Of a DNA stretch of 61,372 nucleotides, positions 16,100-54,236 are shown one piece after another (within the stretch, counting starts at the first letter, position 1; every line of letters begins with the position of its first letter). A program made the translations under genes and the position numbers. Location: IMG/VR virus record IMGVR_UViG_3300021560_000002, positions 1 through 61,372 of that record; one strand, written 5' to 3'. Below the pieces are notes generated by a model that was not told the origin of the DNA, made no database searches, and saw only the letters and a list, made by a program, of their open reading frames with translations. Source of the DNA: a virus (taxonomy: Duplodnaviria; Caudoviricetes).

Positions 16100-16119
16100 G
16101 CGTCCCTCTAATACTTCGT

Positions 16120-16339: not shown

Positions 16340-16368
16340 TTGACTTCCTACTCGCCTAATGGTATTCA
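16340..16368 (+). promoter_or_regulatory. Rightward sigma70-type promoter for the AAA_25 gene
   Basis: TTGACT-N17-TATTCA with TG extended -10. Confidence 0.5.
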
Positions 16369-16480
16369 CCGATCCGCTGGGTAATGTCTGGCGCATGAGC
16401 TGCGGAGGAGACGGCCTGCAGTCGCCTCCTCCCGATTTTCTGTGTGTCGGAACTCCCACACTCATGCAAAGGACATTTCG

Positions 16481-34249: not shown

Positions 34250-34261
34250 GGAGGCCCGGCC

Positions 34262-36608: not shown

Positions 36609-37213
36609 TCTACTCGTCCGAGTACCTGGACTCCCTGCTCTCCCGGCTGCGTCCGCAGGTTAGCTATCCCGTGGTCCCAGGGCATCCCTGTCTCTACGAC
36701 GCCCTCCGCACGGTATGCCTGAACTTGCGGCCAACGTCGTATCTAGAGATCGGCGTCAACGACGGCGTCTCGCTTGCCGCAGTCCTCGACTCGGCTCCCG
36801 GCTGCTCCCGCCTGACCCTGTGCGACGAGTGGGGCGCAGTGGACGGCGGACGCGCTCGCGGCTCCCACGCGCATATCGGCGAGATGCTCCGGGCCATCAG
36901 CTACGCGGGCTACGTCCGCTTCCTCGACGGCGACTCCCGAACGCTGATTCCGCAGCTCCCCGCCGACGACGTCTACTCGCTCGTCCTTGTCGACGGCTGC
37001 CACTCCTACGACGGCTGTCTCGCCGACCTGCGCAGCGTCTGGCCGCACGTTGCGCCCCTCGGCACTCTCGTCCTCGACGACTGGGGCAGGCCCGATGTCT
37101 GCCGCGCCTTCGACGATTTCATCATCGGGCTGGCCGGGCAGCCGCAACCCGTCTATGTCTTCGAGACCCACGACCCGGCCGACGGAACTCTCGTGCTGCG
37201 GAGGTTGTCGTGA
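36605..37213 (+). CDS. Class I SAM-dependent methyltransferase (Methyltransf_24-like)
   Basis: [26 protein letters not shown]; GTGA-coupled to the glycosyltransferase. Confidence 0.88.
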
Positions 37214-39711
37214 TCCTGCGACGCAGTCTTCTGATCCTCGGAGTCATCCTCGGTTCCGCGCTTCCCGCCTCGGCGATGGAGGCCGCGCGCGGCTGGTGCG
37301 AGATGGGGAACAATCCCGTGGTCACCTCCGGCCTGACTTCGACGACCAAGGTGCAGCAATCGTTTCCGCGATGCACAGTTCAGGTCTTCGTCCACGGCGG
37401 CGGACTGGCGACCATCTTCTCCGACAACGTCGGCACGCCTCTGACGAACCCGTTCACCGCGCAGACTGACGGCCAGTGGATCTTCTACGCGGCCAACGGA
37501 CGGTACGACGTCACGATGTCTGGAGCCGGATTCCCGCAACCCGTTACCTACTCCGACATCCTCCTGTGCGACGGCTGCGGCGGTGGTGGAGGCGGCGGCG
37601 GTCCCACGATCCAGACCAACAGCGTCAACAATCTCGCGCAGAACGTACTGAACTTCGTCAATACCACCGGCGCATCCGGCATCAACGCCACGAACCCGTC
37701 CGGCGGCATCGAGAACATGAATATCGCCAATGAGGCGCCCGTGGGCTCCGGCTCCTCCGTTCTCATCGGCACGCTGACGGCGCTGCAGGCAGGACAGGTC
37801 ATCTGCGCGTCGTCGTCCTCGCTGCTGGTTAACTGTACGCTCGGAGTCCCGGTCAACGAGCAGAACGGAACGTCCTACGCCATCGTCGCCGCCGATCGCT
37901 CGCACGCTATCTTTCACCATAACAATTCCACCGCGACGTTCACGATTCCGCAGGCGTCCGCCGTCGGCTTTGGCGCTGGCTACCAGACCGGAATCGCCAA
38001 CGTCGGCACGGGCCAGACCATCACGCTGACCTCGTCGGTCTCGACCTTCACCTATGGCTCGCTCATCGGCTCCTCGACGCTGGTGCTGAACGCGGGCCAA
38101 TCGGTCTATCTCTACACCGACGGCGTCAACTGGTTCGGGATTATCGTGGGCGCAGGCGCTGGCGGCACGCTCGCCCGCGTTTGCATGATGGACTTCGGCA
38201 CGCAGAACGGCACGGCCCTTGCCAACGCCGACATCGCGCCGCAGCAGTTCGTCTGCCAGGTGCCCGACAACGCCACGCTGCTCGAGATCGATCTCACCGG
38301 GAACGCAGGCACGCCGTCGCTCATCCCCGAAGTCGAGCACTGCACTACCTTCACCGCAGGCGTCTGCACTGCCTACACCGATTCCGACCTCGTCTCCACG
38401 GCGCTCGCGACCAACGCTTCTGGCGTCGTCGCTTGCTCCTCCGTCGCTGGAGGCACGGGTCAGGACGGCGGGACGAACTGCTCTGCTACTCTCCAGAACA
38501 CGACGCTCGACAAGGGCGATTGGCTCGGCACGCGCACGGGCACGGCTGGCGGCACCGCAGCCTTCCTCAAAGCCGCTGTCTGGTTCACGACCGCAGGCGG
38601 CGGAGGCGGCGGCGGCGGAGGCTCCGGCACCGTGACATCCATCGCCACCACGTCGCCCCTCACCGGCGGCACTATCACGACGACCGGAACGATCGCCTGC
38701 GCAACCTGCGTAACTTCCGCCTCTGCGCTGACATCAAACGGCGTCGTCATTGGTGGCGGCGGCCAAGCATCCTCGACCATCTCCGCTGACACGACGACGA
38801 CTCACGCGCTGTTCGCGACGGCTACGGCTCCCGCGTTCCGCGCTATCACTAGCTCCGACCTCCCAGCGATTAACCTCGCGGCGTCCGGCGCTGGCGGCGT
38901 CACCGGCAACCTCCCGGTTACGAACCTCAACTCCGGCACGTCTGCGTCCTCGTCGACCTTCTGGCGTGGCGACGGCACTTGGTCCGCCGTGACATCGTCT
39001 GCCGGCGGCACCTCCGGCCAGATTCAGTGGAACAACTCTGGCTCCCTCGCTGGCTTCACGATGTCCGGCGACGCCACGACGAACACCTCGACCGGCGTTC
39101 TCACTCTCGCCAACTCTGGTGTCACCGCTGGCTCCTGCGGCGACACGACCCACTCCTGTGGCCTGACCGTAGACGCCAAGGGCCGCGTGACGGCGTTGTC
39201 GAACAACTCCATTGCGTCGTCGTCGTCGTTCGCGTCTCTGACCACCGGCACCAATACCTCCGCCGCGATGAATGTCGGCACGGGAGCGTCGCTCGGCCCC
39301 TCCGGCACCGGAACCATCACTGCGACGCAGGGCCAATCGACCGCCACGTTCCCGGCGCAGTTCTTTGAAGCCTCTGGCACGGCGCTGGTCTCCGGTGACT
39401 TTGTCCTGACCGGCTGGGGCTCCGGCGCCACGATATCCTCTGGCCCCTCCGGCACTGACCAAGCCGCCTTCTTCACCATTACCTCTGGCACGTCGCCGTC
39501 CGCCAACCCGACCATTGCGTTCACCTTCCACGATGGCGCTAAGACGCAGACTCCTGTGTGCATGGCGCAGCCGACCGGCGGTAATGACATCTTGGCCGAT
39601 TACACGGTCTCGGCACGCTCGACCACGGCCTATACGTGGGTGTTCAACGGAACGCCGACAGCTTCTAAGACTTACGAGCTAAGTTTCATCTGCTCAGGGA
39701 GAACACATTAA
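37210..39711 (+). CDS. Tail fibre with N-terminal signal peptide
   Basis: GTG start (GGAGG, GTGA overlap); [22 protein letters not shown]|; attachment-type domain [10 protein letters not shown]...[10 protein letters not shown]; fibre motifs [20 protein letters not shown] and TVDAKGRVT. Confidence 0.82.
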
Positions 39712-41852
39712 TGCGGCGGTTGTTATTGCTGTTAGGAACCTTTCTGTGCGTTACCTGCGTTTGGGGGCAGGCGACCACGTTCAACACGACGACAGGACGC
39801 CAGTACCAGCAGCCGTGTCCTGTGTCGGCGGGCTGCACGGGCGCAACGGCTACTACTCCGCCGACGAATCCCTTGCCGATTAAGGCGCTGACGATTCAAT
39901 ACCCCAACGAGGGGACGACCGGGACAACGCTGAATAAGCTGGTCAAGATTGTCAACGACCCTCCGGTAGCCATCCTTCTCGGAACATCGGACACGAACCT
40001 GGCCTTCGGCGTCGTGTCTTCTGGCGCTGGCACAACCGGCAACGCAAACGTGGATGTTTACGGGGAAACGTCCTGCGTATTTGACGGAGCTACAACGGCG
40101 CTCGATTATGTGATTTCCTCGACTACGACCGCAGGGGATTGTCACGATTCCGGCTCTGGGTCTACGTTCCCGGTAGGCGTCGTTGTTGTTGGCCGCGTGC
40201 TTTCCACTAATGGCGGTGGCGGAACCTACACTCTCAACCTATTCACGCCGGACGTTTCCGCCTCTTCATCGGGGCCGAACGGTAAAGGCAGCACGATACA
40301 GGTCAACGGGACAAACTCAAAGACGACCGCCAATTTCAATGCCACGACGCCAGCAGCCAGCGCCGGGAATCTGAATATACCGTTTGCCAGCTCGAACTCC
40401 GGGAATACAACGAGCGTTTCCGTGGCAGTGCCAATCAGCGGCAACGGGACTAAGGTAGCCTCGACATCGGGAACTTTCACTGCCGGACACATCGTAACCA
40501 GCGATGCCAGCCAAAATCTGGTAGATAGCGGATCTGGATTGACCGTTCCGTTCACATCGCAGATTCCGAATAACGGGACAGGAACGACGGTCAACAATGT
40601 TGCGGTGGCTGTAGGCGCGGCTAATTCCGTGCAGACCGCTGCGACCACGGACACCGGAACATCCGGCAACGCCATCGTCGGCATCGTCTCGGCGGGAGCA
40701 GGTACGACCGGCAAGGCAACCGTCATCATCCTCGGCCCGGCATCCTGCGTCTTCGACAACGCGACGACCGCTGGCGATGGCGTAGTGCCATCCATCATTA
40801 CTGGCGGAAAATGTCACGATGTAACTACCTCATTCGGCTCCAATAACGGCTCCTTCATCATAGGCCGCGTCGAGACGACCAACGGCTCCGCAGGCACGTA
40901 TGTCGTGGATGTGGGACTCGCGGGTCAGACCGGCACATGGAACAATCTCACGGGAAATACAGGGCCGCGAGCTTTCGGTTACGGACAGTGGGGGATGATT
41001 CCTTACGCGATGAACTTGTTCCAAGAGGGATTCACGAATGGTTCATCTATCTCCACCAGCGGCGGCGCTACTCTTCATACACGCAACGGCAATAACACGC
41101 ATTACATTGGTTGGGGATGGTCGTCTAGTGGTAACAGTGGCGCGGATGCTGAAATTGATCTTTCCCAAGGTCTGTTCTCGAAACTCTTTATCAGCAGCGG
41201 CGCGTTCTACAATTCTCCGGCGAACAAAGGTAGCTGCACGGGCACGGTAGACTATACCGCGAACCTCGGCAACTTGTTCCTGTGCAGCCTGACAGGCAAC
41301 ACCACGCTCACGACGAGCCGGAACGACGCAGGCCAACTCATCATCGCGCGCCAGTGTCAGGACGCTACCGGAGGCCGCACGCTAACATGGCCTTCTTCTT
41401 ACGTCGGCGCTTCCGCGATGCCAGCGATTCTCTCGACCTGCATGGCGCAATTGTTCGTTGACGTGGACGGCGGAACGACCATTCAGGCCGTGGCTCCGCC
41501 TGTGCCGATTACCGTGGAGAAGACTTCTCAGACCTCCGCCATTGCAACGACGACGCTGACCAATCTGACCTCCGACGGTTTCTACCGCGCTACCGCCGCG
41601 CTCGATTGCGATTCCTCTTCCGCCGCCGCGACTGTGAACATTACATTCGGATGGACTGACCCATCCGGCACAGCGCAGACCTCGACGCTTGGCTCCGCCG
41701 TCGTCTGCACGACCCTCGGCGCGGCCAGCATCGGCAATCTAACCGTCTCATTCCGCGCGAAGTCCGGCACGGCCATCACCTACTCCACGGCCATCGTCAA
41801 CACGCCGACCTACGACGTGAGCGTGGCGCTGGAGACGTTGGCGATAAAATGA
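39711..41852 (+). CDS. Fibre/decoration protein with signal peptide and two cement-like repeats
   Basis: [19 protein letters not shown]|Q; duplicated SAGAGTTG.A.V...G..SCVFD.ATTA.D.V..S..T.G.CHD; QDATGGRTLTWP fibre module. Confidence 0.75.
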   Translation: MRRLLLLLGTFLCVTCVWGQATTFNTTTGRQYQQPCPVSAGCTGATATTPPTNPLPIKALTIQYPNEGTTGTTLNKLVKIVNDPPVAILLGTSDTNLAFGVVSSGAGTTGNANVDVYGETSCVFDGATTALDYVISSTTTAGDCHDSGSGSTFPVGVVVVGRVLSTNGGGGTYTLNLFTPDVSASSSGPNGKGSTIQVNGTNSKTTANFNATTPAASAGNLNIPFASSNSGNTTSVSVAVPISGNGTKVASTSGTFTAGHIVTSDASQNLVDSGSGLTVPFTSQIPNNGTGTTVNNVAVAVGAANSVQTAATTDTGTSGNAIVGIVSAGAGTTGKATVIILGPASCVFDNATTAGDGVVPSIITGGKCHDVTTSFGSNNGSFIIGRVETTNGSAGTYVVDVGLAGQTGTWNNLTGNTGPRAFGYGQWGMIPYAMNLFQEGFTNGSSISTSGGATLHTRNGNNTHYIGWGWSSSGNSGADAEIDLSQGLFSKLFISSGAFYNSPANKGSCTGTVDYTANLGNLFLCSLTGNTTLTTSRNDAGQLIIARQCQDATGGRTLTWPSSYVGASAMPAILSTCMAQLFVDVDGGTTIQAVAPPVPITVEKTSQTSAIATTTLTNLTSDGFYRATAALDCDSSSAAATVNITFGWTDPSGTAQTSTLGSAVVCTTLGAASIGNLTVSFRAKSGTAITYSTAIVNTPTYDVSVALETLAIK

Positions 41853-43279
41853 CCCGCGCGGCCCTGATTCTCCTGACGGCTCTCGCCTGCGTATCCTCCG
41901 TGCTCGCGCAGGGTATGGCCGACTCTGGTGGAGGAACCATTGCTTCCACGGCGTCCATCGCCACGACTGCAACCGGAGTCGTCGCTAACGGCATCTGGAT
42001 TGTTACCGTAGACCCGACGCAGACAGGTACTCCATCAGTCAGCTTCGTATCGCTCCATGATACCTTCGGCTTGATCTTCACGCAGATCGCCGCCGATAGT
42101 GCGGAGCATCGCGTCTTCTGCGCTCCCATCGGCTCTAATTCTGGTAGCGATACTCTGACGGTCACCTACTCCGGCCCCGCCACCAACGGAAGCATCGTTG
42201 CACAGGAATTTCTGGATGCAACCTGCACGCTGGACGGCACACCGCAGATTACGACTTCCCCGACGAACCCGATCAACGGAAACTACACGATTACCGCCAA
42301 TCAGGACTTGGTGCTGACACCGCTATTCGCCAACTTCGGTGCTGGCGGCGGCTGCGCTGATGGGAACGTACCTAGCGGGAATACCCTCGGCATCGTCCCT
42401 TATTGGATTGTCGTGACGCCCTCCGGCACGACTTTCAGCCAGGCTTGTGCGCCGAATAGCGCAGGCGGCGTTCTCATCATGCTAGCTCTGTTGCCCTCAA
42501 CCCTTGGCCCATTCCCTGCGCCGATTCGCACTGGCGCTTCGGCAAACTGTCAGAATCCATGCGCCGCAGGAACCAACGTGGTACTGAATGTCCTCAAGGG
42601 AGAGACGTTGATCTATTCCGCTGACTGGTGCGCCAATCCGACTTGCTCTTCCCTTGCAGGCAGTATTGTCTCGATGAGTGATTCGCAGTCGAACGCGGTG
42701 ACATGCACATCGCAATCCGGCCCGAATTCCCACTCGCAGATATGCTTCACGCACGCCTCAGCTTCCGGCTCGCTCACTGTGAACTTTACAAACATCGGCG
42801 CTGGAGGCACACACTTCTACAAAGGCATATTCGTCGCAGTCGCGCTTCATGGCGGAACCTTCGGCCCCTGCGACTGGTGTAGCACCGGCGGCGCTACTAG
42901 CGGCAGCGGCAATCTCATTCAGGTCAGCACCACATCTACCCCTGCGGCCTACGATACGGAACTCTGGGTTGGCAGCGTCATAAATTTCAACACCGTCGCT
43001 TGCCGATCAAATGCTGTGTGGGCACCATACTGGCCGCTAGTGACTCCGGTGACGCCGCCATCATCCATCCAGAGCATGAACGTAACGTTCTACAACAATG
43101 TCGCCTTCGCCATCGTTCACGGCGTCGCGGGAACTATCCCTGAGATGACATTCGACTGCACGCAGTCAGCGGGATTGCTCAACTGGTCAGGCAGCTTTAT
43201 GTCGCTGAAATACGTGCCGCCATCCGGCCTACGTTCGCAGGTCTACGACGACGACCTCGACAACAGGATACGACCATGA
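41849..43279 (+). CDS. Secreted Cys-rich beta-sandwich protein (putative adhesin)
   Basis: MTRAALILLTALACVSSVLA|Q; Ser/Thr/Gly-rich; paralogous to 53460-54236. Confidence 0.7.
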   Translation: MTRAALILLTALACVSSVLAQGMADSGGGTIASTASIATTATGVVANGIWIVTVDPTQTGTPSVSFVSLHDTFGLIFTQIAADSAEHRVFCAPIGSNSGSDTLTVTYSGPATNGSIVAQEFLDATCTLDGTPQITTSPTNPINGNYTITANQDLVLTPLFANFGAGGGCADGNVPSGNTLGIVPYWIVVTPSGTTFSQACAPNSAGGVLIMLALLPSTLGPFPAPIRTGASANCQNPCAAGTNVVLNVLKGETLIYSADWCANPTCSSLAGSIVSMSDSQSNAVTCTSQSGPNSHSQICFTHASASGSLTVNFTNIGAGGTHFYKGIFVAVALHGGTFGPCDWCSTGGATSGSGNLIQVSTTSTPAAYDTELWVGSVINFNTVACRSNAVWAPYWPLVTPVTPPSSIQSMNVTFYNNVAFAIVHGVAGTIPEMTFDCTQSAGLLNWSGSFMSLKYVPPSGLRSQVYDDDLDNRIRP

Positions 43280-45825
43280 GACAGAACGAACGAGACTGGC
43301 TGGCGGCAACGATCTGGACGGTGATGATCGCCATCGTCGGCCTGCTGCTGTGCGAGGGAGTGCAGGCGACTGACTTTCCCGTCCATGGCGGCGGCAACAT
43401 TCAGACAGCGATAAACTCCGCCGCGTCGGCTGGCGTCGGCTCGACTATCACGATTGACGTTCAAGGCTCCGGCGGATCGTTCACTCCACAGATCCTCACC
43501 CTCCCCGTCGTCACCGGATGCACTACAGGCCAATACGTTACCATCCGCACGGCGTCTTTCGCATCGCTTCCCAACCGGCGCATCCTGCCGACGGATTCTG
43601 CGCTGATGCCGAAGATTACGCGCACCGGGCTGGACGCCGGAGGTCTATTCGACCTCGCTCCCGGCACAAACGGCGGCTGCTGGAAGCTACAAGGGCTTGA
43701 GTTAACGACCGACGCGGTGAGCCAGATGGTCTTCGCCCTCGTCAACTTTCAAGACACTGGCAGCTCTCATCTCTACATTGACCGCTGCTGGATTCATTCC
43801 GCGGAAGGCTCGACGGGACGCACTGTGCCGTACAACTCTTCAGCAGGCTTGGGCGGCGTCCTCTCTGACGGCTCCGATGTAACCATCATCAACAGCTATA
43901 TCAACGGCTGGTGGGGGTTGCCGCTAGGGGCGTCGGCGGGTGCAACGATGACGCAATCGTCCGCTATTATCTCTGACGTTGGCCCCTGCAATACTTGCAC
44001 ATGGACCAACAACTACCTCGAAGGCGGCTATACCCACATACAGATGGGAGGATCGCCGCAGAACGCGACCGTCGGCGGCACTGTTTCGGCATCGCCAGCG
44101 CCGACTACGACCTCCGCTACTATTTCCTCCGTAAGCAGCCTCTCCGTGGGAATGCCAATCGCACTCCAGGTCCCTTGGTCATCATCGTACTGCAAGCGCG
44201 ACAACACGCATCCTTGCTGGGGAAACGGCGTCGTGCAGACTATCGTCGGCAATGCTATTACCTTCTCCGCGCTGACAGGCGAGCTGCCGGATGGCACGCC
44301 AAAAAGTACGGCGGCTCCCTCATCTGGCGGCAATGCGGTCTGGTCAGGAACGCAGCTATCCGGTATCACGATTAACCTGAACGAAATGGTCTTCAACTAC
44401 GCCTTCGAGTTCTGGCTGCGCTTTACCAGCGGCAACGGAAACCACGATAAAGGCTACATGGAAATCAAGAACGGCACGACTCTCGACCTCGAAGGGAACG
44501 TCTTCGGTGAGTGGGGCGGCTGGCCGTCAGTCTTCGGCATGGGGAACGAAGAGAATCAGGTGGGCGACTCCCCCTTCGCCACACAGTCGAACATCACCGT
44601 CAAGAACAACTGGATTCGCGGCTTCACCAACTGTGTCTACTTCGGAGACTCCATCTCCGGCGCTTATCTCGGCTTTCTCAACACCGCCGCATCGAATATC
44701 GCCATCACCAACAATATCTGCGAGCAGCCGGACACGCTCTCGATTGACGCCGCTCCAGCGACGGCCACGGTATTCAACGTCGGCAAATCCGGTTACGTCC
44801 ATCAGCACAATACAATTCTGACCGGATACAGCAACGTTTACTCCGGGTCGGTGATGACCTTTGATCAGTCGCCAGCAGCCGCCTACGGTTCGCTCTGGAC
44901 TCCCAATCCGGCATTCGCGGACGACCTGATCGGTTGGGGAAACTACGGCGTGGGTTGCTCTGCCGGAGCACTTGTCAACTGTCTCGGCAGCTACACTTCC
45001 AGCCATCTGCTGATACCGCTATGCACGGCGAGTGCCTGTACCTCTCCAGCGAACCCCGTTGCCGATGGCACGTTCGCATCCTCGACCGCCGAACCGGGCT
45101 GGGCCTCAATCCTATTCACGAACGCCGCCGCGCATATCTGGTCGCTGACTCCCTCCTCTCCCGGATATCACGCTGCTTCGGACGGCACTGACATCGGCGT
45201 GAACTGGCCGAATCTCTGCGCGGCAATGAGCAACGACAACCCGTTGCCAGCGGGCTGCGGCTCCTCTCCGCCGCCTACGGCCACGCTGACCGTCGCGTCT
45301 TCTAATCCCGGTTCCGGTTGCTCGTTCACCAATTCTCCTCCCGACAACGGTAGCATCAGTTCTGGAACAACGCCGACGACGCTGACTTTCAACACGGGAA
45401 CACTGGTCACGGTGACCTACGCCGCCACCTGCGGAAGCAATACCTCTCCGACGCTAGTAGGGTATAGCTCGTCTACGGGAAACGTTGGGACGGTGACTAT
45501 CTCTGCCAGTGTCACCGGAACTGCCGTCTACCAGGGATCAGCGCCGATCGTGCCGCCGGGTGTCGTGCCGCTAATGGTTAGCGCCCCCGCCGGCTCGCAG
45601 GTCACGCTGCAACCGCCTGACGCCAACGGCATAACCTCTGGCTCGTCGTTCTCGCTGACGCAGCCATCGACGCTGACGTTTGTCCCGCTACCCCTCATCC
45701 CGCCGCCGCCCGTCTCCCTATCCGGCTCCTGCCAAGGACCGCCAGCGACGCGCAAGGGCCAGAAGACGACGTGTACATGGACGGCAACTGGAACCGCAAC
45801 GCAGTGTTCGTGTGTATTACACTGA
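43276..45825 (+). CDS. Secreted right-handed beta-helix protein (putative depolymerase)
   Basis: Hydrophobic N-terminus ending VQA|; IQTAINSA, IDRCWIH, NNYLEG, EIKN...LEGNVF, NITVKNNWI Asn-ladder repeats. Confidence 0.75.
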   Translation: MRQNERDWLAATIWTVMIAIVGLLLCEGVQATDFPVHGGGNIQTAINSAASAGVGSTITIDVQGSGGSFTPQILTLPVVTGCTTGQYVTIRTASFASLPNRRILPTDSALMPKITRTGLDAGGLFDLAPGTNGGCWKLQGLELTTDAVSQMVFALVNFQDTGSSHLYIDRCWIHSAEGSTGRTVPYNSSAGLGGVLSDGSDVTIINSYINGWWGLPLGASAGATMTQSSAIISDVGPCNTCTWTNNYLEGGYTHIQMGGSPQNATVGGTVSASPAPTTTSATISSVSSLSVGMPIALQVPWSSSYCKRDNTHPCWGNGVVQTIVGNAITFSALTGELPDGTPKSTAAPSSGGNAVWSGTQLSGITINLNEMVFNYAFEFWLRFTSGNGNHDKGYMEIKNGTTLDLEGNVFGEWGGWPSVFGMGNEENQVGDSPFATQSNITVKNNWIRGFTNCVYFGDSISGAYLGFLNTAASNIAITNNICEQPDTLSIDAAPATATVFNVGKSGYVHQHNTILTGYSNVYSGSVMTFDQSPAAAYGSLWTPNPAFADDLIGWGNYGVGCSAGALVNCLGSYTSSHLLIPLCTASACTSPANPVADGTFASSTAEPGWASILFTNAAAHIWSLTPSSPGYHAASDGTDIGVNWPNLCAAMSNDNPLPAGCGSSPPPTATLTVASSNPGSGCSFTNSPPDNGSISSGTTPTTLTFNTGTLVTVTYAATCGSNTSPTLVGYSSSTGNVGTVTISASVTGTAVYQGSAPIVPPGVVPLMVSAPAGSQVTLQPPDANGITSGSSFSLTQPSTLTFVPLPLIPPPPVSLSGSCQGPPATRKGQKTTCTWTATGTATQCSCVLH

Positions 45826-45846
45826 ACGGACGAGGAGGCAACGAAG

Positions 45847-46269
45847 ATGGACCCAGCAACCAGCGCCGGAACAGCCCATGTCGGGAGCACGCTCATCGCC
45901 GTCGGTGCGATGCAGTGGCTCAAGAAGGCATCGTGGTTTCCGCTGCTCAAAGACGGGCAGCGCGTGCTAAACCGCACAGTCAGCGTATTCGTCGCCCTTG
46001 GGATTCAGGCGGGCATCAGCTACACCTACACGTCGACGGCCAACGGCGGCCACTCGATCACGCTTCTGCTGCCGAGCTACTACGCGATGGCCGTGGGCTT
46101 GTTCCACTGGGCGTCTCAGTATCTCTATCAGGAGACTGGCTATACCTTCCTCACCGGCCTGCAGGCGTTTCAGGAGGGAGCCGGGAAGCTCTCTGGCATC
46201 CTCGCACACATGCAGGACGTGACGGATACGCGCCGGGACGCGGTGAAGGTAGAGCCGGTAGTGCCGTAG
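45847..46269 (+). CDS. Membrane protein (holin-like)
   Basis: Two to three hydrophobic segments; GAGGAGG SD. Confidence 0.55.
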   Translation: MDPATSAGTAHVGSTLIAVGAMQWLKKASWFPLLKDGQRVLNRTVSVFVALGIQAGISYTYTSTANGGHSITLLLPSYYAMAVGLFHWASQYLYQETGYTFLTGLQAFQEGAGKLSGILAHMQDVTDTRRDAVKVEPVVP

Positions 46270-46300
46270 ACCAAGTCCAATCACAGGGGGCCAAGGGGCC

Positions 46301-46576
46301 ATGCACTTCGATATGACAATCACGCTGGGCGGCGTTATCCAGACTGTCTCCATTATCTGCGTCATCTTCGGCGGCGTATGGACGCTGCGCGGAAAGTTGG
46401 ATGCGCTGATGGAGACGTTTCAAGCGGACATTCGTGACGCCAACGAAGGCACGTACCGCCGCCATCGTCAGAACACGCAACGTCTTGACTTCATGCTGAA
46501 CTTGATTAACGCTTTGCGGCGGGACAACGGACAGGCGGAAATTCCCTGTCCGTACCGCACAATTCTCGACCCCTGA
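46301..46576 (+). CDS. Single-TM membrane protein (holin/antiholin-like)
   Basis: ITLGGVIQTVSIICVIFGGVW plus coiled segment. Confidence 0.6.
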   Translation: MHFDMTITLGGVIQTVSIICVIFGGVWTLRGKLDALMETFQADIRDANEGTYRRHRQNTQRLDFMLNLINALRRDNGQAEIPCPYRTILDP

Positions 46577-46597
46577 CAGGGGAGACGGAGGAAGCCG

Positions 46598-46804
46598 ATG
46601 TCACATTTCACCCGCGACCGCATGACCGGAGACCGCGACGAGACCAACGCCGAGGACGTCGCTCGGACGCGCCCGTTCGGGCAGACCCGCTATCACCATC
46701 GCAACGACCAGACCGACGAAGAACTCGACCGCGTCGCAGAGCCCGGCGAGGGCACTGAGGATCGCTGCGCCATCTTCAATCGCCAGCTCCGGGGAGAACG
46801 CTGA
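46598..46804 (+). CDS. Hypothetical charged protein
   Basis: GGAGG SD; TGATG coupling. Confidence 0.6.
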   Translation: MSHFTRDRMTGDRDETNAEDVARTRPFGQTRYHHRNDQTDEELDRVAEPGEGTEDRCAIFNRQLRGER

Positions 46805-46980
46805 TGCCGATTTCTAAGCACTACGGCGGCCACGGCGACGAGGTCATGTCGTCGATGAAGAAGACCTACGGCGACTCGGAAAAAGCCAAGCGCGTTTTTT
46901 ACGCTACCGAAAACGCCCGCAAAAACGACCGGAAGCCGCGCGGCCGCAAGCGCATCCGCAAGCAGGGCGGCAAGCGCTGA
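46804..46980 (+). CDS. Small basic phage protein (58 aa)
   Basis: MKKTYG...KAKRVFYATEN motif plus Arg/Lys tail. Confidence 0.7.
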   Translation: MPISKHYGGHGDEVMSSMKKTYGDSEKAKRVFYATENARKNDRKPRGRKRIRKQGGKR

Positions 46981-47008
46981 CCTCTGACGAAGACGAAGGA
47001 GTCCGCCC

Positions 47009-48385
47009 CTGCCCTCCTACACCTACATCACGCTCGCGCAGGCCCGGCAGCAGTTGGCCCAGCGGCTTTACGACGCCGCGCAGACGTTCTGGGCGTCCGC
47101 GGAACTCACCGTCTACATTGTCGAGGCGCTGCGCACCTTCAACGCGCTAACGTCGTTCTGGCGCGGAGACTTCGTCTTCAAGTCGAACGACCCCTCGCTC
47201 ATCGGAACGCAGTGGTACGACCTTACCGCCGTCGCCAACACGCTCCGCCCATACACCGTTACCGACGCATCTCTATTCCAGACCATCGAGTACCACCTGC
47301 TCGAGCCCGCGAACCTTCCCTCTGTCCCGTGGTCCGGCTCATCGCAATTCTCCGTCGACGACATCCTGCAAGCCATCGCGCGGCGCCGCGACGAACTTCT
47401 CTCGCTCACCGGATGCACGCAGACGCGGAGGCTCGTCGGCGCGGCCGCCGGACGCACTTTGCTCCCGGATACCGTCATCGACGTCCGCCGTCTCAGCTAT
47501 CTCCCGAATGCGCCCGGCGTCCCCTCCGTCCTGTGGCCCGCCGACGCTTGGGACGAGCAGTCGTTCAACGCCTTCTACACCATCCTCCCGGCGGGGACTC
47601 CCGGCACTCCCTCGACCTATCTCCTGTCGACGCAGCCGCCGCTTTCATTCGACGTCGATACGCCGCCGTCGTTCGCCGGCTCCTATGAACTCATCACCGT
47701 CGAGGCCGGGGCCGCGGCTAACCCCGCTGTGCCGTCGCTGCTCTCCATCCCCGACGACTGGTCGTGGGCGGTTAAGTGGGGGGCGCTGGCCGACCTGTTC
47801 TCCCGCGACTCTCTCTCCCGCGATCCTCTGCGCGCGGAATACTGCCAGCGCCGCTACGACATGGCGCAGCGGCTGCTGACATCGGCCCCGGCGCTGCTCG
47901 CTCTGCGCCTCGATAACGTCGCGCTGCAAATCGACTCCCTGCGCCTGCTCGATCTCTACGACACTTCGTGGGAGGCGCAAGCAGCCGGGACGCCCCTCGC
48001 TGCCGGGCACGCGGGACTCAACCTAGTCACGCTTGCCCCTGCCGCCGACACCAACGGAGCCGCCGGGTTCTACATGCTCGACGCCACGGTCGTCTCGAAC
48101 GCCCCGGTTCCCTCCGTCGACGCCGACCCCGTGCAGGTCTCCCGCGACGACTTAGACGCCGTGCTCGGCTATGCTCAGCACCTGGCGACGCTCAAATCCG
48201 GCGGCGCAGAGTTCACCGCCACTCTCCCGCTGCTCCAGCGCTTCCTCGACCAGTGCGCCGTCTACAACTCAAAGCTGCGGGAGTTCGCCGAGTTCACAAC
48301 CACGCTGCTCGGCGTCTCGGCGCGCGAGTCCCAGACCAATCCCCGGATGGAGCCGTCTACTGTGGAGGCCGCCAGTGGCGAGTGA
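47009..48385 (+). CDS. Tail adaptor/tubular protein (CTG start proposed)
   Basis: AAGGAG 7 nt before in-frame CTG gives (M)PSYTYITLAQARQQLAQRLYD..FW...EL..YI.EA; two adaptor-like repeats. Confidence 0.7.
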   Translation: MPSYTYITLAQARQQLAQRLYDAAQTFWASAELTVYIVEALRTFNALTSFWRGDFVFKSNDPSLIGTQWYDLTAVANTLRPYTVTDASLFQTIEYHLLEPANLPSVPWSGSSQFSVDDILQAIARRRDELLSLTGCTQTRRLVGAAAGRTLLPDTVIDVRRLSYLPNAPGVPSVLWPADAWDEQSFNAFYTILPAGTPGTPSTYLLSTQPPLSFDVDTPPSFAGSYELITVEAGAAANPAVPSLLSIPDDWSWAVKWGALADLFSRDSLSRDPLRAEYCQRRYDMAQRLLTSAPALLALRLDNVALQIDSLRLLDLYDTSWEAQAAGTPLAAGHAGLNLVTLAPAADTNGAAGFYMLDATVVSNAPVPSVDADPVQVSRDDLDAVLGYAQHLATLKSGGAEFTATLPLLQRFLDQCAVYNSKLREFAEFTTTLLGVSARESQTNPRMEPSTVEAASGE

Positions 48386-51300
48386 GCAGTTCAATCGGCC
48401 GCGCGCGGGACTGCGCTACGCAGGCATCGGACTGCGCACGACAGACGTCGCCGACGCCTTGCCGCCCAACCGCTCGCCTTACCTCCAGAACGTACGCACG
48501 ACGCGGGACTCGAACCTGCAGACACGCCCTGGCCAGACGCTATCCTTTGCGCTGACCGGAGACACCGCGCATTACATCGCCGACCTGCGGGCCTACTCGG
48601 CCCTCGGAACCGACAATCTCCCCCGCGTTGTCGCCTACGCCGTCGATGGCCGCGTTTGGCTCGACTCTGGCGCAGGTGTCGTCGGCTCGCTCGCCATTAC
48701 CTCGGCGACGCCGCTCGGCGCGTCTCTCATCCCGTTCCGCCCGAACCAGTCTCCTGTCCCGTACCTCTACATTGCCAACGGGACCGACTATCAGAAGTTC
48801 TCGGCTCCCAGCCCCGCCGTGACGCAGCAGAAAGTGGGAATCGCCGAGCCGCAGTCTCCGCCCGACGCCGCTCTGGATTCCCTCGCCATCGGCCAGTTCA
48901 CCTTCACCGGAACCTATACCCACGGCGGCACGGCGACCGGCGTGACCGGAGGCTCCCGCGTCTCGGACATCGCAGGCACGGTGCTGCCGGACCCGACGCC
49001 AGGCTCGGCCGTCTGGTCTATCCAAGTCTCCTCGTCGATCTCCTACCAAAAGCTGATGCAGGTAGCGATTGGCCCGACGGTCTTCGTGATCCAGGACGTC
49101 ATCCCGCCGCTCGCTACCGCCCTTGCCATCTCCGCGATCGCCTACTTCACCGGGACCACCGGGCGCTGCATCATCGTTCCGGCTAACCTATCCGCAGGCC
49201 CCGGCAGCGAGGAATCCTCCATCTACACGCAGAATATCCTCGCGTCGCTGCGCCGCGGAGCGCTCATCTCCGTCGGCGCAGAAGTCTGCATCGTTTGGTC
49301 GGTGACCATCGGCCCTGACGGCTCGGTAGCCATCGAAACCTCGACGACCGGGACGCACACTATCGCCGACTCACTGACATCGCTGCCGACGGTGACCGTC
49401 GTCGGCGGCTCTCCCACCGCCGGGCAAGGCATCGCCGCCGCACAAGTCTCCTATCAGGTGGCATCGGGCGTTGGCACGCAGACCGCCACGCTCAACACAA
49501 ACCCCTTCGTCACCTCCGGCGGCACGGCGTTCCAGCCCGACGACCTCATCTCCGTCGGCATTCTGCTCAACGTCGCCCTAGACAACATCCAGACGCTCAC
49601 CGAGGTCAAACTGCTGATCGACATCGACGACGGCTCGTTTACCAAAAACTTCTACTACTACGCCATCCGCGCGTCCGACATCGCGCAGGCGCTCGCGCCG
49701 ACGAACCCGCAGACACAGCTGGCCGTCGCGCAGACGGTGGACCAGCGCGCGACCGTCGACGAGGAAGCTGCCGCCGCCGCCAACAACCAGCTCGCGACGG
49801 CGTCGTCGGCACAGCTCGTCCCCGGAACCGACCAATGGACGCAGATTGTTTTCCCGATCTCCGCGTTGACGCGCGTCGGCGGTGACCAGACCAAATCGCT
49901 GCAGAACGCCGTCAAGATCCAGTTCCTTTGGAATTGCACAGGGACGATCAACGTGGCAACCGATAACGTTGTCACCGTCTTCGGCACGAACCAACCCGAC
50001 GTCGGCGATGTCGGCGCTCCCTATCAATACCGGGTGCGGCCGCGATCGTCGGTCACCGGAGCCGTCGGCAACCCCTCCCCCGAGACACGCTACGGAGTCT
50101 CCGCCCGGCGCACGTCCGTCCTCGTCGCTCTCCCGTCCGCCGCCTACGACGCACAGATCGACACCTGGGACGTCTTCCGCTACGGCGGCTCGGTCAACTC
50201 TTGGCGGCAGATCGGCTCGACGCCGTCGTCGAACACGTCCTTCGTGGACAATTTCGACGACGCTGCAGCGACGGCCGGCGACGCACTCGACTTCGACAAC
50301 TTCGAGCCGTGGCCGTCGGTCGACATTCCTCTGAACGCCACGACGATCTCAGTCACCGGAACCATCGCGCTCGTCACCATCGCTGCGCCGACCAACGCTC
50401 TGCGCTTTCTCCCCGGCAACCTCGTGCAGCTCGGCGGACAGAACGTCGTCACGCTGCGCTCGCGCCCGGTGTTAATCTCCGGCACGACATATCGCTTTGA
50501 GTTCGAGGAGAACGCCGGGGCGCTGGGAGCCGTCTCCGTGCAGATCTACGAACCAGCTCTCGCCCGCCAGTTCCTCCCGTATATGTTTGGCCCGGACGCC
50601 TCGGGCACGGTGCTAGCTGTCGGCGACCCGCTCCGTCCCGGCACGCTCTACTTCGCCAAGCCGTCCCAGCCGGACTCTGCGCCCGACTCCTATAACATCG
50701 AAATCACGCCGCCGTCGGAGCCTTTGCTCGGCGGTGTCATCGTCGACGGCCTGGCGTTCGTCGCGTCGCCGGAACGCTGGTGGGCGCTCTACCCGCAATT
50801 CGGCAACGCGGCGCAGCGGTACTCCGTCGTGCAGCAGCCGGCGCTGCGCGGACTGGCCGCTCCTCGTGGCCTCGCCACCGACGGCGTCTCGTTCTACTAC
50901 TGGGCCAAGGACGGCATTTACTCCTCGACCAAGGGACTGCTCACCGCCGACCTCTATAACCTGTTTCCACACGACGGCGTTCCCGGCGTCAACGTGACCT
51001 ACAACGGACGCACGGTGTTCGCTCCCGACTATCGCTACGCGCAGCAGTTTCGCCTCACCTTCTCCAATGGCTACCTCTACGCCATCTACGCCGACCAGAC
51101 ACAAACCTTCCGCTGCCTTGTCTACGATGCTCTCCGTGCGGCTTGGACTCTCGACGTCTACACCCCGCCCGTCTCCGCCTGCTACCACCCGGAGCAACAG
51201 GCCGGAACGCTGCTCGACACGGCGACTCCCACGCGCTACCCGGAACTGCTGATGGCGACGATGCCGTTCGTCTCCCACACGCCGCAGTCCGCGGCCGTCG

Positions 51301-52022
51301 TCGTGCAGACCGACCTCTCCGACGACTACGCCGGGCAAATCGCCTGCATCGTGGATTCCGCCGAAGCCTCCGCCGGAGACGACCGCGCGCCGAAGCAGTG
51401 GGGCGACCTATTCGTCGATGTGACGCCCGTCGCCGCTGGAGCCGCGCTCACTGCGCAGCCGATGTCGCTCGGAGCCGCCGCTGCGCCCGCCGTCGTCGTC
51501 CCGGCGACCACGCTGCGCACCCGCACTCCCGTATCGGTCGGCGGCATCGTCCTCTCCGCCTACCTCGGACTCGAACTAACTTGGACGGACAAGTATTCCG
51601 GCGGCGGTCAGACCGCCCCGACGCGGCTGCACCTCTGGCAGCCGTCGTTCGCCATCCAGCCCGCCGCGACCGTCGCGTGGGCGACCATCGGCTCGAACTT
51701 CGGCTGCGAAGGCTACTTCCACATCCGCCAGCTCGTCCTCGCGTATATATCGTCGGCGGCGATTACCCTGACGCTGACGCCGTTCGACGGCCAGGCCCCG
51801 GCGGTGGTGACGCTGCCGTCGTCCTCTGGCGTCCTCGTCAAGCGTTTCTTCCCGCTGACGGCGAACAAGGGGCTGCTGTATGCCGTCGCTGCGGCATCGT
51901 CGGCTCCGTTTCAACTCTACCTCGACGACTCGGAAATCGCCGTCGGGCCGTGGGCGCGCACTGGACCCTACGTCATCGCGCGCGACTTCGGAGGAAGGAC
52001 GGTGGAGAATGCCGCGATCTAA
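48375..52022 (+). CDS. Tail tubular/stabilization protein (P22 gp10-like)
   Basis: 1215 aa; G.....D.LPPN....LQNV start, LYFAKP..PD, FYYWAKDGIY, LVYD....W beta-propeller patterns; GGAGG SD. Confidence 0.75.
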   Translation: MASEQFNRPRAGLRYAGIGLRTTDVADALPPNRSPYLQNVRTTRDSNLQTRPGQTLSFALTGDTAHYIADLRAYSALGTDNLPRVVAYAVDGRVWLDSGAGVVGSLAITSATPLGASLIPFRPNQSPVPYLYIANGTDYQKFSAPSPAVTQQKVGIAEPQSPPDAALDSLAIGQFTFTGTYTHGGTATGVTGGSRVSDIAGTVLPDPTPGSAVWSIQVSSSISYQKLMQVAIGPTVFVIQDVIPPLATALAISAIAYFTGTTGRCIIVPANLSAGPGSEESSIYTQNILASLRRGALISVGAEVCIVWSVTIGPDGSVAIETSTTGTHTIADSLTSLPTVTVVGGSPTAGQGIAAAQVSYQVASGVGTQTATLNTNPFVTSGGTAFQPDDLISVGILLNVALDNIQTLTEVKLLIDIDDGSFTKNFYYYAIRASDIAQALAPTNPQTQLAVAQTVDQRATVDEEAAAAANNQLATASSAQLVPGTDQWTQIVFPISALTRVGGDQTKSLQNAVKIQFLWNCTGTINVATDNVVTVFGTNQPDVGDVGAPYQYRVRPRSSVTGAVGNPSPETRYGVSARRTSVLVALPSAAYDAQIDTWDVFRYGGSVNSWRQIGSTPSSNTSFVDNFDDAAATAGDALDFDNFEPWPSVDIPLNATTISVTGTIALVTIAAPTNALRFLPGNLVQLGGQNVVTLRSRPVLISGTTYRFEFEENAGALGAVSVQIYEPALARQFLPYMFGPDASGTVLAVGDPLRPGTLYFAKPSQPDSAPDSYNIEITPPSEPLLGGVIVDGLAFVASPERWWALYPQFGNAAQRYSVVQQPALRGLAAPRGLATDGVSFYYWAKDGIYSSTKGLLTADLYNLFPHDGVPGVNVTYNGRTVFAPDYRYAQQFRLTFSNGYLYAIYADQTQTFRCLVYDALRAAWTLDVYTPPVSACYHPEQQAGTLLDTATPTRYPELLMATMPFVSHTPQSAAVVVQTDLSDDYAGQIACIVDSAEASAGDDRAPKQWGDLFVDVTPVAAGAALTAQPMSLGAAAAPAVVVPATTLRTRTPVSVGGIVLSAYLGLELTWTDKYSGGGQTAPTRLHLWQPSFAIQPAATVAWATIGSNFGCEGYFHIRQLVLAYISSAAITLTLTPFDGQAPAVVTLPSSSGVLVKRFFPLTANKGLLYAVAAASSAPFQLYLDDSEIAVGPWARTGPYVIARDFGGRTVENAAI

Positions 52023-52347
52023 GCCACGAGCGACGGCGCCTGCTGCGACCGCTCAGCGCTGGTATCCGACGACACAGCAACTCTCCGACCCGGCGACGCT
52101 GGAGCGCTCGTTCCGGCAACTCCTGACGCAGCACTACGCGCTGCAGGATGAGGTGGCGGCGATGAAGACGGCGCAGGCAGCGGGAGGGACAGGCGCGACC
52201 GCTACGGCTCCCAAGTATCCCCCCGGCTCCGGGCCGACCGACACGCAGCTCTGCGGCCTGCACGTCGAGCCCGTCGACCCCGGCGCGCTCGCTGATGGCA
52301 CGAAGCTAACCTATGTCAAAAAGACGGGGACATTCAAGTTCATGTAG
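52009..52347 (+). CDS. Hypothetical tail protein
   Basis: GGAG SD; overlaps the end of the stabilization gene. Confidence 0.6.
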   Translation: MPRSKPRATAPAATAQRWYPTTQQLSDPATLERSFRQLLTQHYALQDEVAAMKTAQAAGGTGATATAPKYPPGSGPTDTQLCGLHVEPVDPGALADGTKLTYVKKTGTFKFM

Positions 52348-52393
52348 CCGAGGTACGGGGAACGTGGTATAAGCGCAAACGGAGGAATAGACG

Positions 52394-52837
52394 ATGACGA
52401 CGTCGGTTCAGAAGAACAAATACGGCCCTTTCTGGCCCCAGGGATGTATCCTAGTCCCGACTCCCGGCACCCCAGTTCGTCTCACGTCACTCATTGACCC
52501 GAACTCTGTCAACGCTCCAGAAGCCGCGACCTCGTCCACCGCCGACGAATACACACCAGCGTTCCACACTATCTTTCTCCAAGGGTATACGACCAACGGC
52601 GCGCCGGGAAATCACGGCCTCGTCCCGAACTCCGGCAATATCTACGTCATCATCAAGGGCGGCGCGGGATCTAACAATCGCGACGACTCCGGCTCGATCC
52701 TCTACGTCCTCGGTCCGGGACTCAACCTGTTCCTGAACGCAGCCGAGCTAAACCTGAATGCCTTCAACCCCTATCAATTCTGGTTCGACGCTGACACCGC
52801 CAACGACGGCGTGCTGGCCGTGGGAGTCGTGGGATGA
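52394..52837 (+). CDS. Putative virion structural protein (jelly-roll)
   Basis: TPGTPVRLT, NSGNIYV, FDADTANDGVL; GGAGG SD; no signal peptide. Confidence 0.7.
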   Translation: MTTSVQKNKYGPFWPQGCILVPTPGTPVRLTSLIDPNSVNAPEAATSSTADEYTPAFHTIFLQGYTTNGAPGNHGLVPNSGNIYVIIKGGAGSNNRDDSGSILYVLGPGLNLFLNAAELNLNAFNPYQFWFDADTANDGVLAVGVVG

Positions 52838-52851
52838 ACGGGAGGCGCGGA

Positions 52852-53460
52852 ATGAACGTTCTCAAGCTGTCGCTAAAGCTGTCGCTAGCCGCTGCCGTCG
52901 TCGTCGCTCTCGCCGCGCTGCCATCCCGTCCGCAATCCGGCGGCTCCGGCCCTCCGTTCAACGCACAGTTCGGCGCGGGAGCTCCGACGGTGAACTGTAC
53001 GCCGCCGTCGCAGGGGGCGCTGGCCCGGATGCTCTACTGGGACACGACCAACTTCGTCTGGTATTACTGTTCGGCGGCGAACACTTGGACGTTGTTCGGC
53101 TCAGGCGCAGCCCCTGCCACTCGCTATACCATCCGCACCTGCCAGCCGGGTCTAGGCGATGGCCTAAACGCCATCCCCGCAGGAACCTATCTGGTATCGG
53201 AATGCTTGAACGAGTTCGGCTCGACGTTCACAATCACCGCGATTAAATGCTTCACTGACAACAACGGGACGAGCACGCTCAATGTGACGAACTCGGCGGC
53301 GACTGGTCTTCTTACCGGCGCGGTTACCTGCACAAACGCATTCGCCGCAGGAACGCAGAGCGCGACAACTACGCTGGCATCCGGGGATTATGCAAAATGG
53401 ACTTTCGTTGCTGACGGCACGTCGAAGCAAGTGACCTTCGTTCTTACGGGGACGCTGTAA
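52852..53460 (+). CDS. Short fibre/adapter with signal peptide
   Basis: MNVLKLSLKLSLAAAVVVALAALPSRP|Q; GAGAP..C.....LYWDTT...YYC..ANTW fibre knuckle; six Cys (alternative start 52834). Confidence 0.7.
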   Translation: MNVLKLSLKLSLAAAVVVALAALPSRPQSGGSGPPFNAQFGAGAPTVNCTPPSQGALARMLYWDTTNFVWYYCSAANTWTLFGSGAAPATRYTIRTCQPGLGDGLNAIPAGTYLVSECLNEFGSTFTITAIKCFTDNNGTSTLNVTNSAATGLLTGAVTCTNAFAAGTQSATTTLASGDYAKWTFVADGTSKQVTFVLTGTL

Positions 53461-54236
53461 TGCGACGCTGGATACTGTTAACACTAGCAGCGTTGGCTTG
53501 CGGAGCTTCGGCTCACGCCGCCTGCTCTAACACAGCTTTTGGGGCTGCGACGTGCATACATGCCGCCAGCAACACCAATGCCAGTAGCGGCAGTTCCGTG
53601 ATAACAACCCTTTCAACTACGGCTGGTCATCTCTATGTCTTGCAAGCCCAATGGTGTCAAAACAGTAGCTGCAACTCAGCAACGACTAGTAGCAACGGAA
53701 CCATAGCTGCAACCGGATGTACGGAGACTTTCCATGTCGCCGCCGCCAGCACCGCCGACTTGAGTTTTAGCGGTGTTTTTATGGCAGTCAAAACTTGGTA
53801 TGTATTCAATTCAGCCGGTAGCTGTACCAGCTTCACAATAACGGTTACTGGATCGCCTTTCTATATGCAACTTGCGGTTAGCGAATGGAGCGGCCCTTCT
53901 TCTTTTTCGCAGACGGACAGCTATGACAAGGGGGGCACGGCTATCTTCAACCCTTGCACGACTTGTACCGTCAGCACTTCATCTTCCACCACACACGCGA
54001 CGGAGCTTATCATCGGATTTGAGAATAATGGCGGACAAACCGCAACGCCAGTGTCACCAGCTATAGTGGTTGTCGTCAATGCGACGAACGGCCGAGCTTT
54101 CGTAGCCGCTAATACGGTTAGTTCCACGGGTACGCAGTCAATGTCATGGACGCAATCGTCAAGTTCCGCGCAAATGGCGCTAGCTACGTTCAATCTGGGT
54201 TCACCCATACCAAGGAAGAAAATGGGGCCGTTTTGA
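53460..54236 (+). CDS. Secreted Cys-rich beta-sandwich protein (putative adhesin)
   Basis: MRRWILLTLAALACGASAHA|A; eight mature Cys; lower GC than its neighbours. Confidence 0.72.
   Translation: MRRWILLTLAALACGASAHAACSNTAFGAATCIHAASNTNASSGSSVITTLSTTAGHLYVLQAQWCQNSSCNSATTSSNGTIAATGCTETFHVAAASTADLSFSGVFMAVKTWYVFNSAGSCTSFTITVTGSPFYMQLAVSEWSGPSSFSQTDSYDKGGTAIFNPCTTCTVSTSSSTTHATELIIGFENNGGQTATPVSPAIVVVVNATNGRAFVAANTVSSTGTQSMSWTQSSSSAQMALATFNLGSPIPRKKMGPF

Follow-up and report, generated by a model that had tools for sequence, protein, structure and literature searches.

Signal-peptide-like leaders on a tail-fibre homologue and five further late proteins of a podovirus-type phage, and a possible export route for its host-recognition proteins

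The virus record IMGVR_UViG_3300021560_000002 of IMG/VR, analysed here over its full length of 61,372 bases (the window), has a G+C content of about 62% and direct terminal repeats at its ends and is, judged by its sequence, a complete podovirus-type phage genome. The subject of this work is a set of six plus-strand late genes, SP1 to SP6, whose products begin with leaders resembling Sec signal peptides. SP1 (37210..39711, 833 amino acids) encodes a tail fibre/tailspike homologue in which the leader (residues 1-22, 37210-37275) is followed by a predicted N-terminal beta-sandwich domain of anchor type (residues about 23-120, 37276-37569), holding a Cys pair at residues 30 and 55, and by a variable, mosaic distal part. 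SP2 (39711..41852, 713 amino acids) carries its leader at residues 1-19 (39711-39767), the orphan SP3 (41849..43279, 476 amino acids) at residues 1-20 (41849-41908), and SP4 (43276..45825, 849 amino acids), a predicted right-handed beta-helix protein of depolymerase-like type, starts with a long leader or signal anchor (residues 1-31, 43276-43368). These four large genes are followed in the right arm by two conserved tail proteins, then by the two small leader genes SP5 (52852..53460, 202 amino acids, leader about residues 1-21, 52852-52914) and SP6 (53460..54236, 258 amino acids, leader residues 1-20, 53460-53519), and finally by internal-protein-like genes. An earlier examination of the letters and their open reading frames (ORFs), here called the sequence-only reading, had ascribed a basic n-region, a hydrophobic h-region and a cleavage region to all six products, which agrees with the translations, and had regarded their starts as backed by Shine-Dalgarno sequences or stop/start overlaps. 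Each of the six start sites does possess one or the other: the GTG at 37210 stands behind GGAGG-N5 and overlaps the upstream stop as GTGA, the starts at 39711 and 53460 form TAATG overlaps, those at 41849 and 43276 form ATGA overlaps with weak Shine-Dalgarno motifs, and the start at 52852 reads GGGAGG-N6-ATG.

Leaders were called by a rule which asks for a 9-residue Kyte-Doolittle mean of at least 2.2, Lys or Arg in the n-region, no Asp or Glu, and small residues at positions -3 and -1. This rule marks 6 of the 81 called window ORFs, namely five of the six SP genes and a dubious antisense ORF at 16118-16384; no capsid, scaffold, adaptor, nozzle-like/tail-core or ejection-type/internal protein among the 81 is marked, which bears out the earlier description of head, adaptor and ejection-type proteins as leaderless. 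The best 9-residue mean amounts to 2.7-3.2 in all six proteins, each of them having Lys or Arg in the n-region, and SP4 fails the rule solely through Asp or Glu in its n-region; its hydrophobic core spans 19 residues, and its homologue P0069 carries a canonical leader ahead of the same mature N-terminus. The cleavage site SRP|Q, proposed earlier for SP5, is unlikely, as ALA|A satisfies the -3/-1 rule better. Applied to other phages, the rule marks 3 of 52 proteins of T7, all of them hypotheticals of 49-112 amino acids with zero structural proteins among them, 0 of 29 of the siphovirus Tunturi_4, and 4 of 28 of the podovirus Tunturi_1, these being its four large fibre-region proteins. A Tat (twin-arginine translocation) signal was rejected, the leaders being short and very hydrophobic with no twin-arginine consensus seen by eye in the printed N-termini (no motif scan was made), and a lipoprotein signal was rejected for the six window proteins, none of which has a lipobox in register; SGC motifs are present in two leader proteins of relatives, G004_b and G005_c.

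Homologues of SP1 (59 proteins of 502-1347 amino acids) have only the first ~120 residues in common, their C-termini being exchanged, and some of them carry pectate-lyase-like or chitin-binding distal domains. A profile search returned 5524 representatives at E<=1e-3 and 319 at E<=1e-30, with the domain N-terminal in the best 150, a set biased towards members with leader and Cys pair by a profile that itself contained the leader and both Cys. In a survey of 186 unique SP1-family N-termini a complete leader was found in 174, with a median length of 21 residues, whereby the question raised earlier, whether homologues keep their leaders, is answered in the affirmative. Lys or Arg occurs within the first 9 residues of 170 of these 174 members, any Asp or Glu within the leader in only 7, and a -3/-1 site in 172, with Ala at -1 in 144 and at -3 in 125; in 129 this site lies exactly 7 residues ahead of the conserved Cys. 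Cleavage is argued to be selected, since the AxA site is fixed in its distance to the domain in these 129 of 172 members. Between members the leader columns are 35% identical and the domain columns 61%; the leader drifts in sequence and retains its physicochemical architecture, and the SP1-family leaders behave like signal peptidase I (SPase I) signal peptides on which selection acts. That the hydrophobic N-termini are mere chance features or stem from wrong starts is considered very unlikely, near to negligible. Such an artefact could appeal to the crude rule by which alone the leaders were called and to the weak Shine-Dalgarno motifs at 41849 and 43276, and is contradicted by the 174 of 186 family members in which leader and domain are in register, by the presence of the leader on the SP1 orthologue in all five complete relatives as well as in the cultured Tunturi_1, and by the control phages, which give no match on structural proteins.

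Position +1 bears on a further explanation, according to which virion fibres derive from a pool that never leaves the cytoplasm, the leaders serving a minor second use such as a small exported pool, with export being saturated or shut off late or with a downstream start yielding a leaderless form. In the window the first codon past the predicted SP1 cleavage site is indeed ATG, and fibre assembly in the cytoplasm is the accepted view, expressed for the P22 tailspike in a figure legend of a 2026 preprint, where this protein is stated to lack a signal peptide since its export is not needed. A conserved second start behind the leader was rejected, as Met is found at +1 in only 6 of 172 family members. 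Further counting against a purely cytoplasmic pool are the cleavage argued above to be selected and the cysteine content treated next, which would place the folding of the working form in an oxidising compartment; this explanation is held to be improbable.

The six mature leader proteins contain 79 Cys in 3192 residues (2.5%) as compared to 0.86% in 22 other late proteins, so that the "many Cys" of the sequence-only reading hold true; 12 of them locate to SP2, 14 to SP3, 6 to SP5 and 8 to SP6, and the count is even in five of the six proteins. Within the SP1 family two sets of N-termini were compared. In the first (70 N-termini, P0043 being counted as leader-bearing and P0056 as ambiguous) both conserved Cys are present in 64 of 64 leader-bearing and in 0 of 5 leaderless members, four of the latter having neither Cys and one having one, with 1 ambiguous case. 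In the second set leader and both Cys occur together in 113 of 117; the other four (P0075, P0095, P0141 and P0147, judged from their protein sequences) are without a clear leader, and three of them look 5'-truncated. The Cys median amounts to 1.94% in leader-bearing members versus 0.74-0.86% in the leaderless fibres encoded on L046 and L047, two contigs from related podophages. Exported, disulfide-bonded proteins characteristically show an excess of even Cys counts. Behind the leader the number of Cys is even in 50 of 55 SP1-family members (binomial p = 1e-10; P0043 and P0056, being 5'-truncated or ambiguous, and the leaderless P0062 and P0063 are excluded) and in 23 of 28 leader proteins of seven phages (p = 4.6e-4), both p-values overstating independence as the sequences share ancestry; among the non-leader proteins of the window 12 have an even count, 20 an odd count and 9 no Cys. 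Cys pairing therefore appears to track the leader in the SP1 family, and from this link, the even counts and the fixed site it is argued that the working form would be translocated, cleaved and oxidised. As regards the oxidant, no thiol oxidoreductase turned up in Pfam scans of 40 window proteins (20 early and 10 late-region proteins together with 10 other ORFs, most of them small), as had been noticed before, and DsbA-like genes are present in three of three Acidobacteriota metagenome-assembled genomes (MAGs) that hold SP1-family members. Acidobacteriota are the likely hosts of this soil phage and its relatives, SP1-family members being harboured by Acidobacteriota, Sulfotelmatobacter and Bryobacterales MAG contigs.

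What SP1 is was approached by structure prediction and by comparison with other phages. The AlphaFold2 model of its residues 1-157 (alignment A1) shows a mean predicted local distance difference test (pLDDT) value of 83.5, a leader helix at residues 3-15 and a beta-sandwich at residues 24-119, over which ten-residue blocks average 92-98. In BFVD, a collection of predicted viral structures, the model yielded 18 matches at E<=1e-3, among them proteins that bear the names pectate-lyase superfamily, tail spike (Pantoea phage Vid5) and exopolysaccharide (EPS) depolymerase. By tblastn the SP1 domain matched residues 16-69 of a tail protein-depolymerase encoded by Escherichia phage vB_EcoM_ECOO78 (KY705409), a protein that begins with the domain and is without a leader. 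This protein and the fibres of L046 and L047 resemble SP1 in that the domain stands at the very N-terminus, the distal parts are variable and the gene lies in the tail region; unlike SP1 they possess no leader and lack one or both conserved Cys, the ECOO78 domain having neither. L046 and L047 also encode relatives of the capsid protein and of both tail-core proteins of the window phage, to which L046 adds the adaptor. In the five complete relatives of the window phage the first ~120 residues of SP1 are 55-76% identical and the rest is not conserved, distal modules being shuffled among the relatives' leader proteins. A conserved N-terminus combined with exchanged distal parts typically marks an anchor, and on sequence and model together SP1 is a genuine tail-fibre/tailspike homologue. 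The SP1-type gene sits in the virion module near adaptor and tail genes and directly follows the adaptor gene in the two relatives L007 and L016 and in Tunturi_1. The adaptor-type protein of the window (34262..35263, plus strand), which is leaderless and 52-59% conserved in relatives, is a candidate docking partner of SP1; a two-chain complex prediction of the adaptor with SP1 residues 23-125 gave a score of 0.00, which speaks neither for nor against binding. Among the leaderless proteins of the window none of a variable, fibre-like kind was seen.

Leader-bearing proteins are not restricted to SP1 and its orthologues. Four of the five complete relatives encode 2-3 more flagged ORFs of at least 590 amino acids each, G002 encoding none, and these proteins are tied together by module shuffling and by a second conserved post-leader N-terminus, common to G001_b, G003_d, G004_b and G005_c. 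Cultured relatives are at hand with Tunturi_1 and Tunturi_2 (PP887698, PP885685), which resemble the window phage in a genome size of about 63 kb and in the anchor domain, the evidence for Tunturi_2 being limited to the same tblastn match. Tunturi_1 is a podovirus of Tunturiibacter psychrotolerans X5P2 (PMC11924767). Its terminase, portal, capsid, adaptor and both tail-core proteins are 30-35% identical to those of the window, and like the window phage it carries a block of large Cys-rich leader proteins after the adaptor gene. Leaders are borne by gp12 (with the same anchor domain), gp13, gp14 (annotated as 'tail spike'), gp16 and gp17 ('virion structural protein'), four of the five being rich in Cys (1.5-2.7%) and the small gp16 having two Cys. 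Differences concern the distal fibre parts and the position of the Tunturi_1 leader block, which abuts recognisable lysis genes. That the host imposes leaders on all its phages was rejected, as the tail/fibre proteins of the podovirus Tunturi_3, which infects the same strain, and of Tunturi_4, whose host is of the same genus, are leaderless and poor in Cys (0-0.85%); the leader trait belongs to a large phage lineage and not to the host.

A cultured precedent from outside this lineage is Cellulophaga phage phi18:3 (NC_021794), a podovirus whose consecutive large proteins gp085, gp086 and gp087 likewise begin with signal-peptide-like leaders and are annotated in its record as structural or tail proteins 'based on experimental MS/MS proteomics' (tandem mass spectrometry). 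These three proteins set a precedent for leader-bearing proteins in virions, the record being silent on leader cleavage. In contrast to the window phage, phi18:3 has a Bacteroidota host and 0-3 Cys per protein, and no sequence similarity was seen.

The remaining leader proteins are less uniform. The sequence-only reading had credited the six genes with recognisable fibre modules; this stands, in the sense of shared folds and modules, for SP1, SP2 and SP4, and falls as regards families, since searches of Pfam and PHROGs gave 0 significant families for any of the six. The fibre module of SP2 comprises residues about 56-243 and is repeated near residue 400; nine viral contigs share it, six as part of longer fibre-like ORFs and the remaining three immediately after a leader; the Atlas neighbours of SP2 are all viral and weak, and in the five complete relatives SP2 is not conserved save for short modules. 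For SP3 a word-indexed search gave no homologue, and SP6 has no relative among the viral contigs. The Atlas model of SP4 (predicted TM-score, pTM, 0.67) aligned from residue 20-28 on to clusters of right-handed beta-helix proteins with TM-scores of 0.51-0.56 by query, the feature matches scoring 0.84-0.87 and thus below the 0.9 mark, whereas an AlphaFold2 model made from 5 sequences was poor (pLDDT 48) and matched phage tailspikes in the PDB with TM<=0.2 only. A solved-structure search yielded nothing for SP4 or the anchor-domain profile. In branched systems second tailspikes ride on the first; SP4 could ride on SP1 or be a soluble exported enzyme. In composition, third-position G+C is 0.67-0.76 in the leader genes (37210-45825, 52852-54236) versus 0.79-0.87 in the core virion genes, and Ser, Thr, Gly, Asn and Ala make up 49-58% of the leader-gene products. 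This composition would fit cassettes that are swapped between phages.

Considering these data, a route is suggested in which the receptor-binding set is exported by Sec, folds oxidatively and docks late onto particles made in the cytoplasm, a proposal to which somewhat less than an even chance is given. Here, the variable host-recognition set, comprising at least SP1 and probably SP2 and SP4, would be made as Sec/SPase I preproteins, which would cross the inner membrane, shed a leader of about 20 residues and fold in the periplasm with all cysteines paired by host DsbA-type oxidases. The leaderless head, adaptor, nozzle-like and internal proteins would meanwhile assemble in the cytoplasm into fibreless particles, and the SP1 beta-sandwich would dock on the tail once the compartments mix, i.e., when the inner membrane is breached at lysis, or just after release; SP3, SP5 and SP6 may ride on SP1 or remain soluble periplasmic helpers. 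Homology of the anchor, its conservation and the lack of another variable fibre gene lead to the argument that SP1 at least works on the virion, and if it is both exported and oxidised and located on the virion, then fibre and particle can meet only after the inner membrane has been breached. P22 tailspikes and T4 fibres attach in vitro to finished particles, spontaneously and as the last assembly step, and as a consequence docking after mixing is plausible; in P22 and T4, however, synthesis and joining of the two partners take place in the cytoplasm, and their fibres are leaderless. The most far-reaching form of the proposal, a two-compartment virion whose core is cytoplasmic and whose whole receptor-binding apparatus is Sec-exported, SPase I-trimmed and disulfide-locked, the halves joining at lysis, is put forward tentatively and is rather doubtful.

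A number of points weigh against this export-and-docking route. Export itself, the disulfides, the virion membership of all six proteins and the time and place of docking are inferred throughout; the leaders were judged by a crude hydropathy and charge rule together with conservation; and the best 150 profile matches carry the bias mentioned above. The lysis step of the mechanism is assumed, as no holin, endolysin or spanin was recognised anywhere in the window by Pfam or PHROG. P0147, a representative protein that looks leaderless and keeps both Cys, alone breaks the coupling of leader and Cys pair, the pair being absent from the other five of six cleanly leaderless members, and in the three MAGs with DsbA-like genes VKOR was found in one of three and DsbB in none. 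The best PDB match of the SP1 anchor model, the Pan3 cyanopodophage tail complex, is weak (E = 0.016), with 0 matches at E<=1e-3. SP3, SP5 and SP6 are without fibre evidence, and the beta-helix neighbours of SP4 are mostly secreted Acidobacteriota proteins; its predicted helix begins right behind the leader with no phage anchor domain, and by its model SP4 looks like a host-type secreted beta-helix enzyme. The Tunturi report, in the part consulted, makes no mention of signal peptides, fibres or virion proteomics (PMC11924767). Finally, P0047 (L044:10001-12466), on a 1.18-Mb Acidobacteriota MAG contig, combines a leader and a pectate-lyase-like domain with the anchor domain known from SP1, and it neighbours methyltransferases and a TonB-dependent receptor with no gene of the window phage within 10 kb. 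This lone chromosomal copy means that the architecture of leader plus domain can occur apart from a virion; P0047 itself may be what is left of a prophage, or a tailspike that has been domesticated.

Several of these points are readily accommodated if all six proteins are exported and none joins the virion, acting instead as periplasmic, outer-membrane or secreted enzymes or adhesins which may cut exopolysaccharide from inside for release, mask receptors against superinfection or alter the cell surface, while the virion would rely on the conserved tail proteins, which have no leader, for binding to its host. In favour of this are the resemblance of SP4 to host-type secreted enzymes without an anchor domain, the stand-alone P0047, the three proteins that bear no sign of being fibres, the adjacency of the Tunturi_1 leader block to lysis genes, and the phages of Porphyromonas gingivalis, for which, as far as the consulted part of that report extends, Sec signal peptides adapted to the signal peptidase rules of the host are described and interpreted as belonging to host-surface modifiers (PMC10367356). 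It is opposed by the SP1 N-domain, which forms the N-terminal module of tail depolymerases and fibres that have no leader, both in related phages and in unrelated ones, by the 61% identity of this domain while C-termini are exchanged, which is the pattern of a virion anchor, by the window having no other variable fibre-like gene, and by the leader-bearing phi18:3 proteins, which are recorded as detected in virions by MS/MS. On balance, export without any virion role, to which the secreted decoys or host-surface modifiers considered in the sequence-only reading belong, is rated rather unlikely and is the main rival, and the export-and-docking route is retained as the working proposal.

According to the textbook view tailed-phage assembly is wholly cytoplasmic, to which Sec-dependent, oxidatively folded fibres would add a second assembly compartment. 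If the two-compartment view is true, lysis would not only release the particles but also be part of their assembly, infectivity would be tied to host Sec, signal peptidase and Dsb, these being new points of host dependency and resistance, the cysteine-rich fibres of soil phages would be explained, and such receptor-binding proteins would be better expressed in the periplasm, without the leader. As Tunturi 1 and 2, the first podoviruses of Acidobacteriota brought into culture, belong to the lineage, the idea is testable, and the leaderless-fibre phage Tunturi_3 on the same host strain is a possible internal control. No paper describing exported tail fibres of tailed phages was found in the open literature, subscription journals and supplements lying outside the search. 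The nearest printed statement found concerns the signal peptides of the Porphyromonas phages, which in the consulted part of that work reside on capsid proteins, spanins and five unknown genes, not on tail fibres, and are read as marking outer-membrane modifiers (PMC10367356). The present window contributes cultured relatives, sister forms that lack the leader, the coupling of leader to Cys pair, the excess of even Cys counts and a control phage from the same host strain.

Of the genes surrounding the leader block, those directly 5' of SP1 encode a leaderless TPR/GT9-like (heptosyltransferase-like) glycosyltransferase (35250-36608, plus strand), immediately 5' of the SP1 region, and a leaderless SAM (S-adenosylmethionine) methyltransferase (36437-37213, plus strand). 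The glycosyltransferase is kept in four of the five complete relatives at 35-40% and stands next to the Ser/Thr-rich fibre SP1; it is reminiscent of autotransporter heptosyltransferases, which modify adhesins prior to export. Further upstream in the right arm, and likewise on the plus strand, the large terminase (23770-25989) and the major head protein (31983-33128) were located. In the adaptor-type gene (34250-34424) an ATT stands where 11 relatives start with GTG, TTG or ATG, none of which is present there; an ATT start, proposed in a separate earlier note, agrees with the start position of the relatives. Between SP4 and SP5 lie the two conserved, leaderless and Cys-poor tail proteins of 443 amino acids (47054-48385, plus strand) and about 1215 amino acids (48375-52022, plus strand), homologues of the Tunturi_1 pair gp30/gp31, which are annotated as 'structural protein' and 'virion structural protein', respectively. 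Pfam and PHROGs recognised among the other late proteins only the terminase large subunit (TerL), the capsid, the glycosyltransferase, the methyltransferase and a weak GNAT match. By synteny with Tunturi_1 a lysis cassette should lie near 45847-46980, an interval in which a 91-amino-acid membrane-type ORF (46301-46576) was observed.

No tRNA was seen in the window, and neither an integrase nor a signal peptidase was seen among its Pfam-scanned proteins. The left arm (79 to about 20,000) is encoded on the minus strand and includes a family A DNA polymerase with a uracil-DNA-glycosylase (UDG)-like domain, a helicase and an HNH endonuclease; in the 944-amino-acid ORF at 79-2913 (minus strand) an N-terminal domain of the uracil-DNA-glycosylase superfamily is joined to the family A DNA polymerase. 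At 13375-13716 (minus strand) an Acb2/Tad1 hairpin domain was detected by Pfam (E = 4.8e-6, barely above the gathering score), and its product is a candidate anti-defence signal sponge. A further early-arm ORF of 127 amino acids (10284-10667, minus strand), for which no Pfam or PHROG match was found, shows a textbook leader at its start and may encode an exported early protein, acting for instance in superinfection exclusion.

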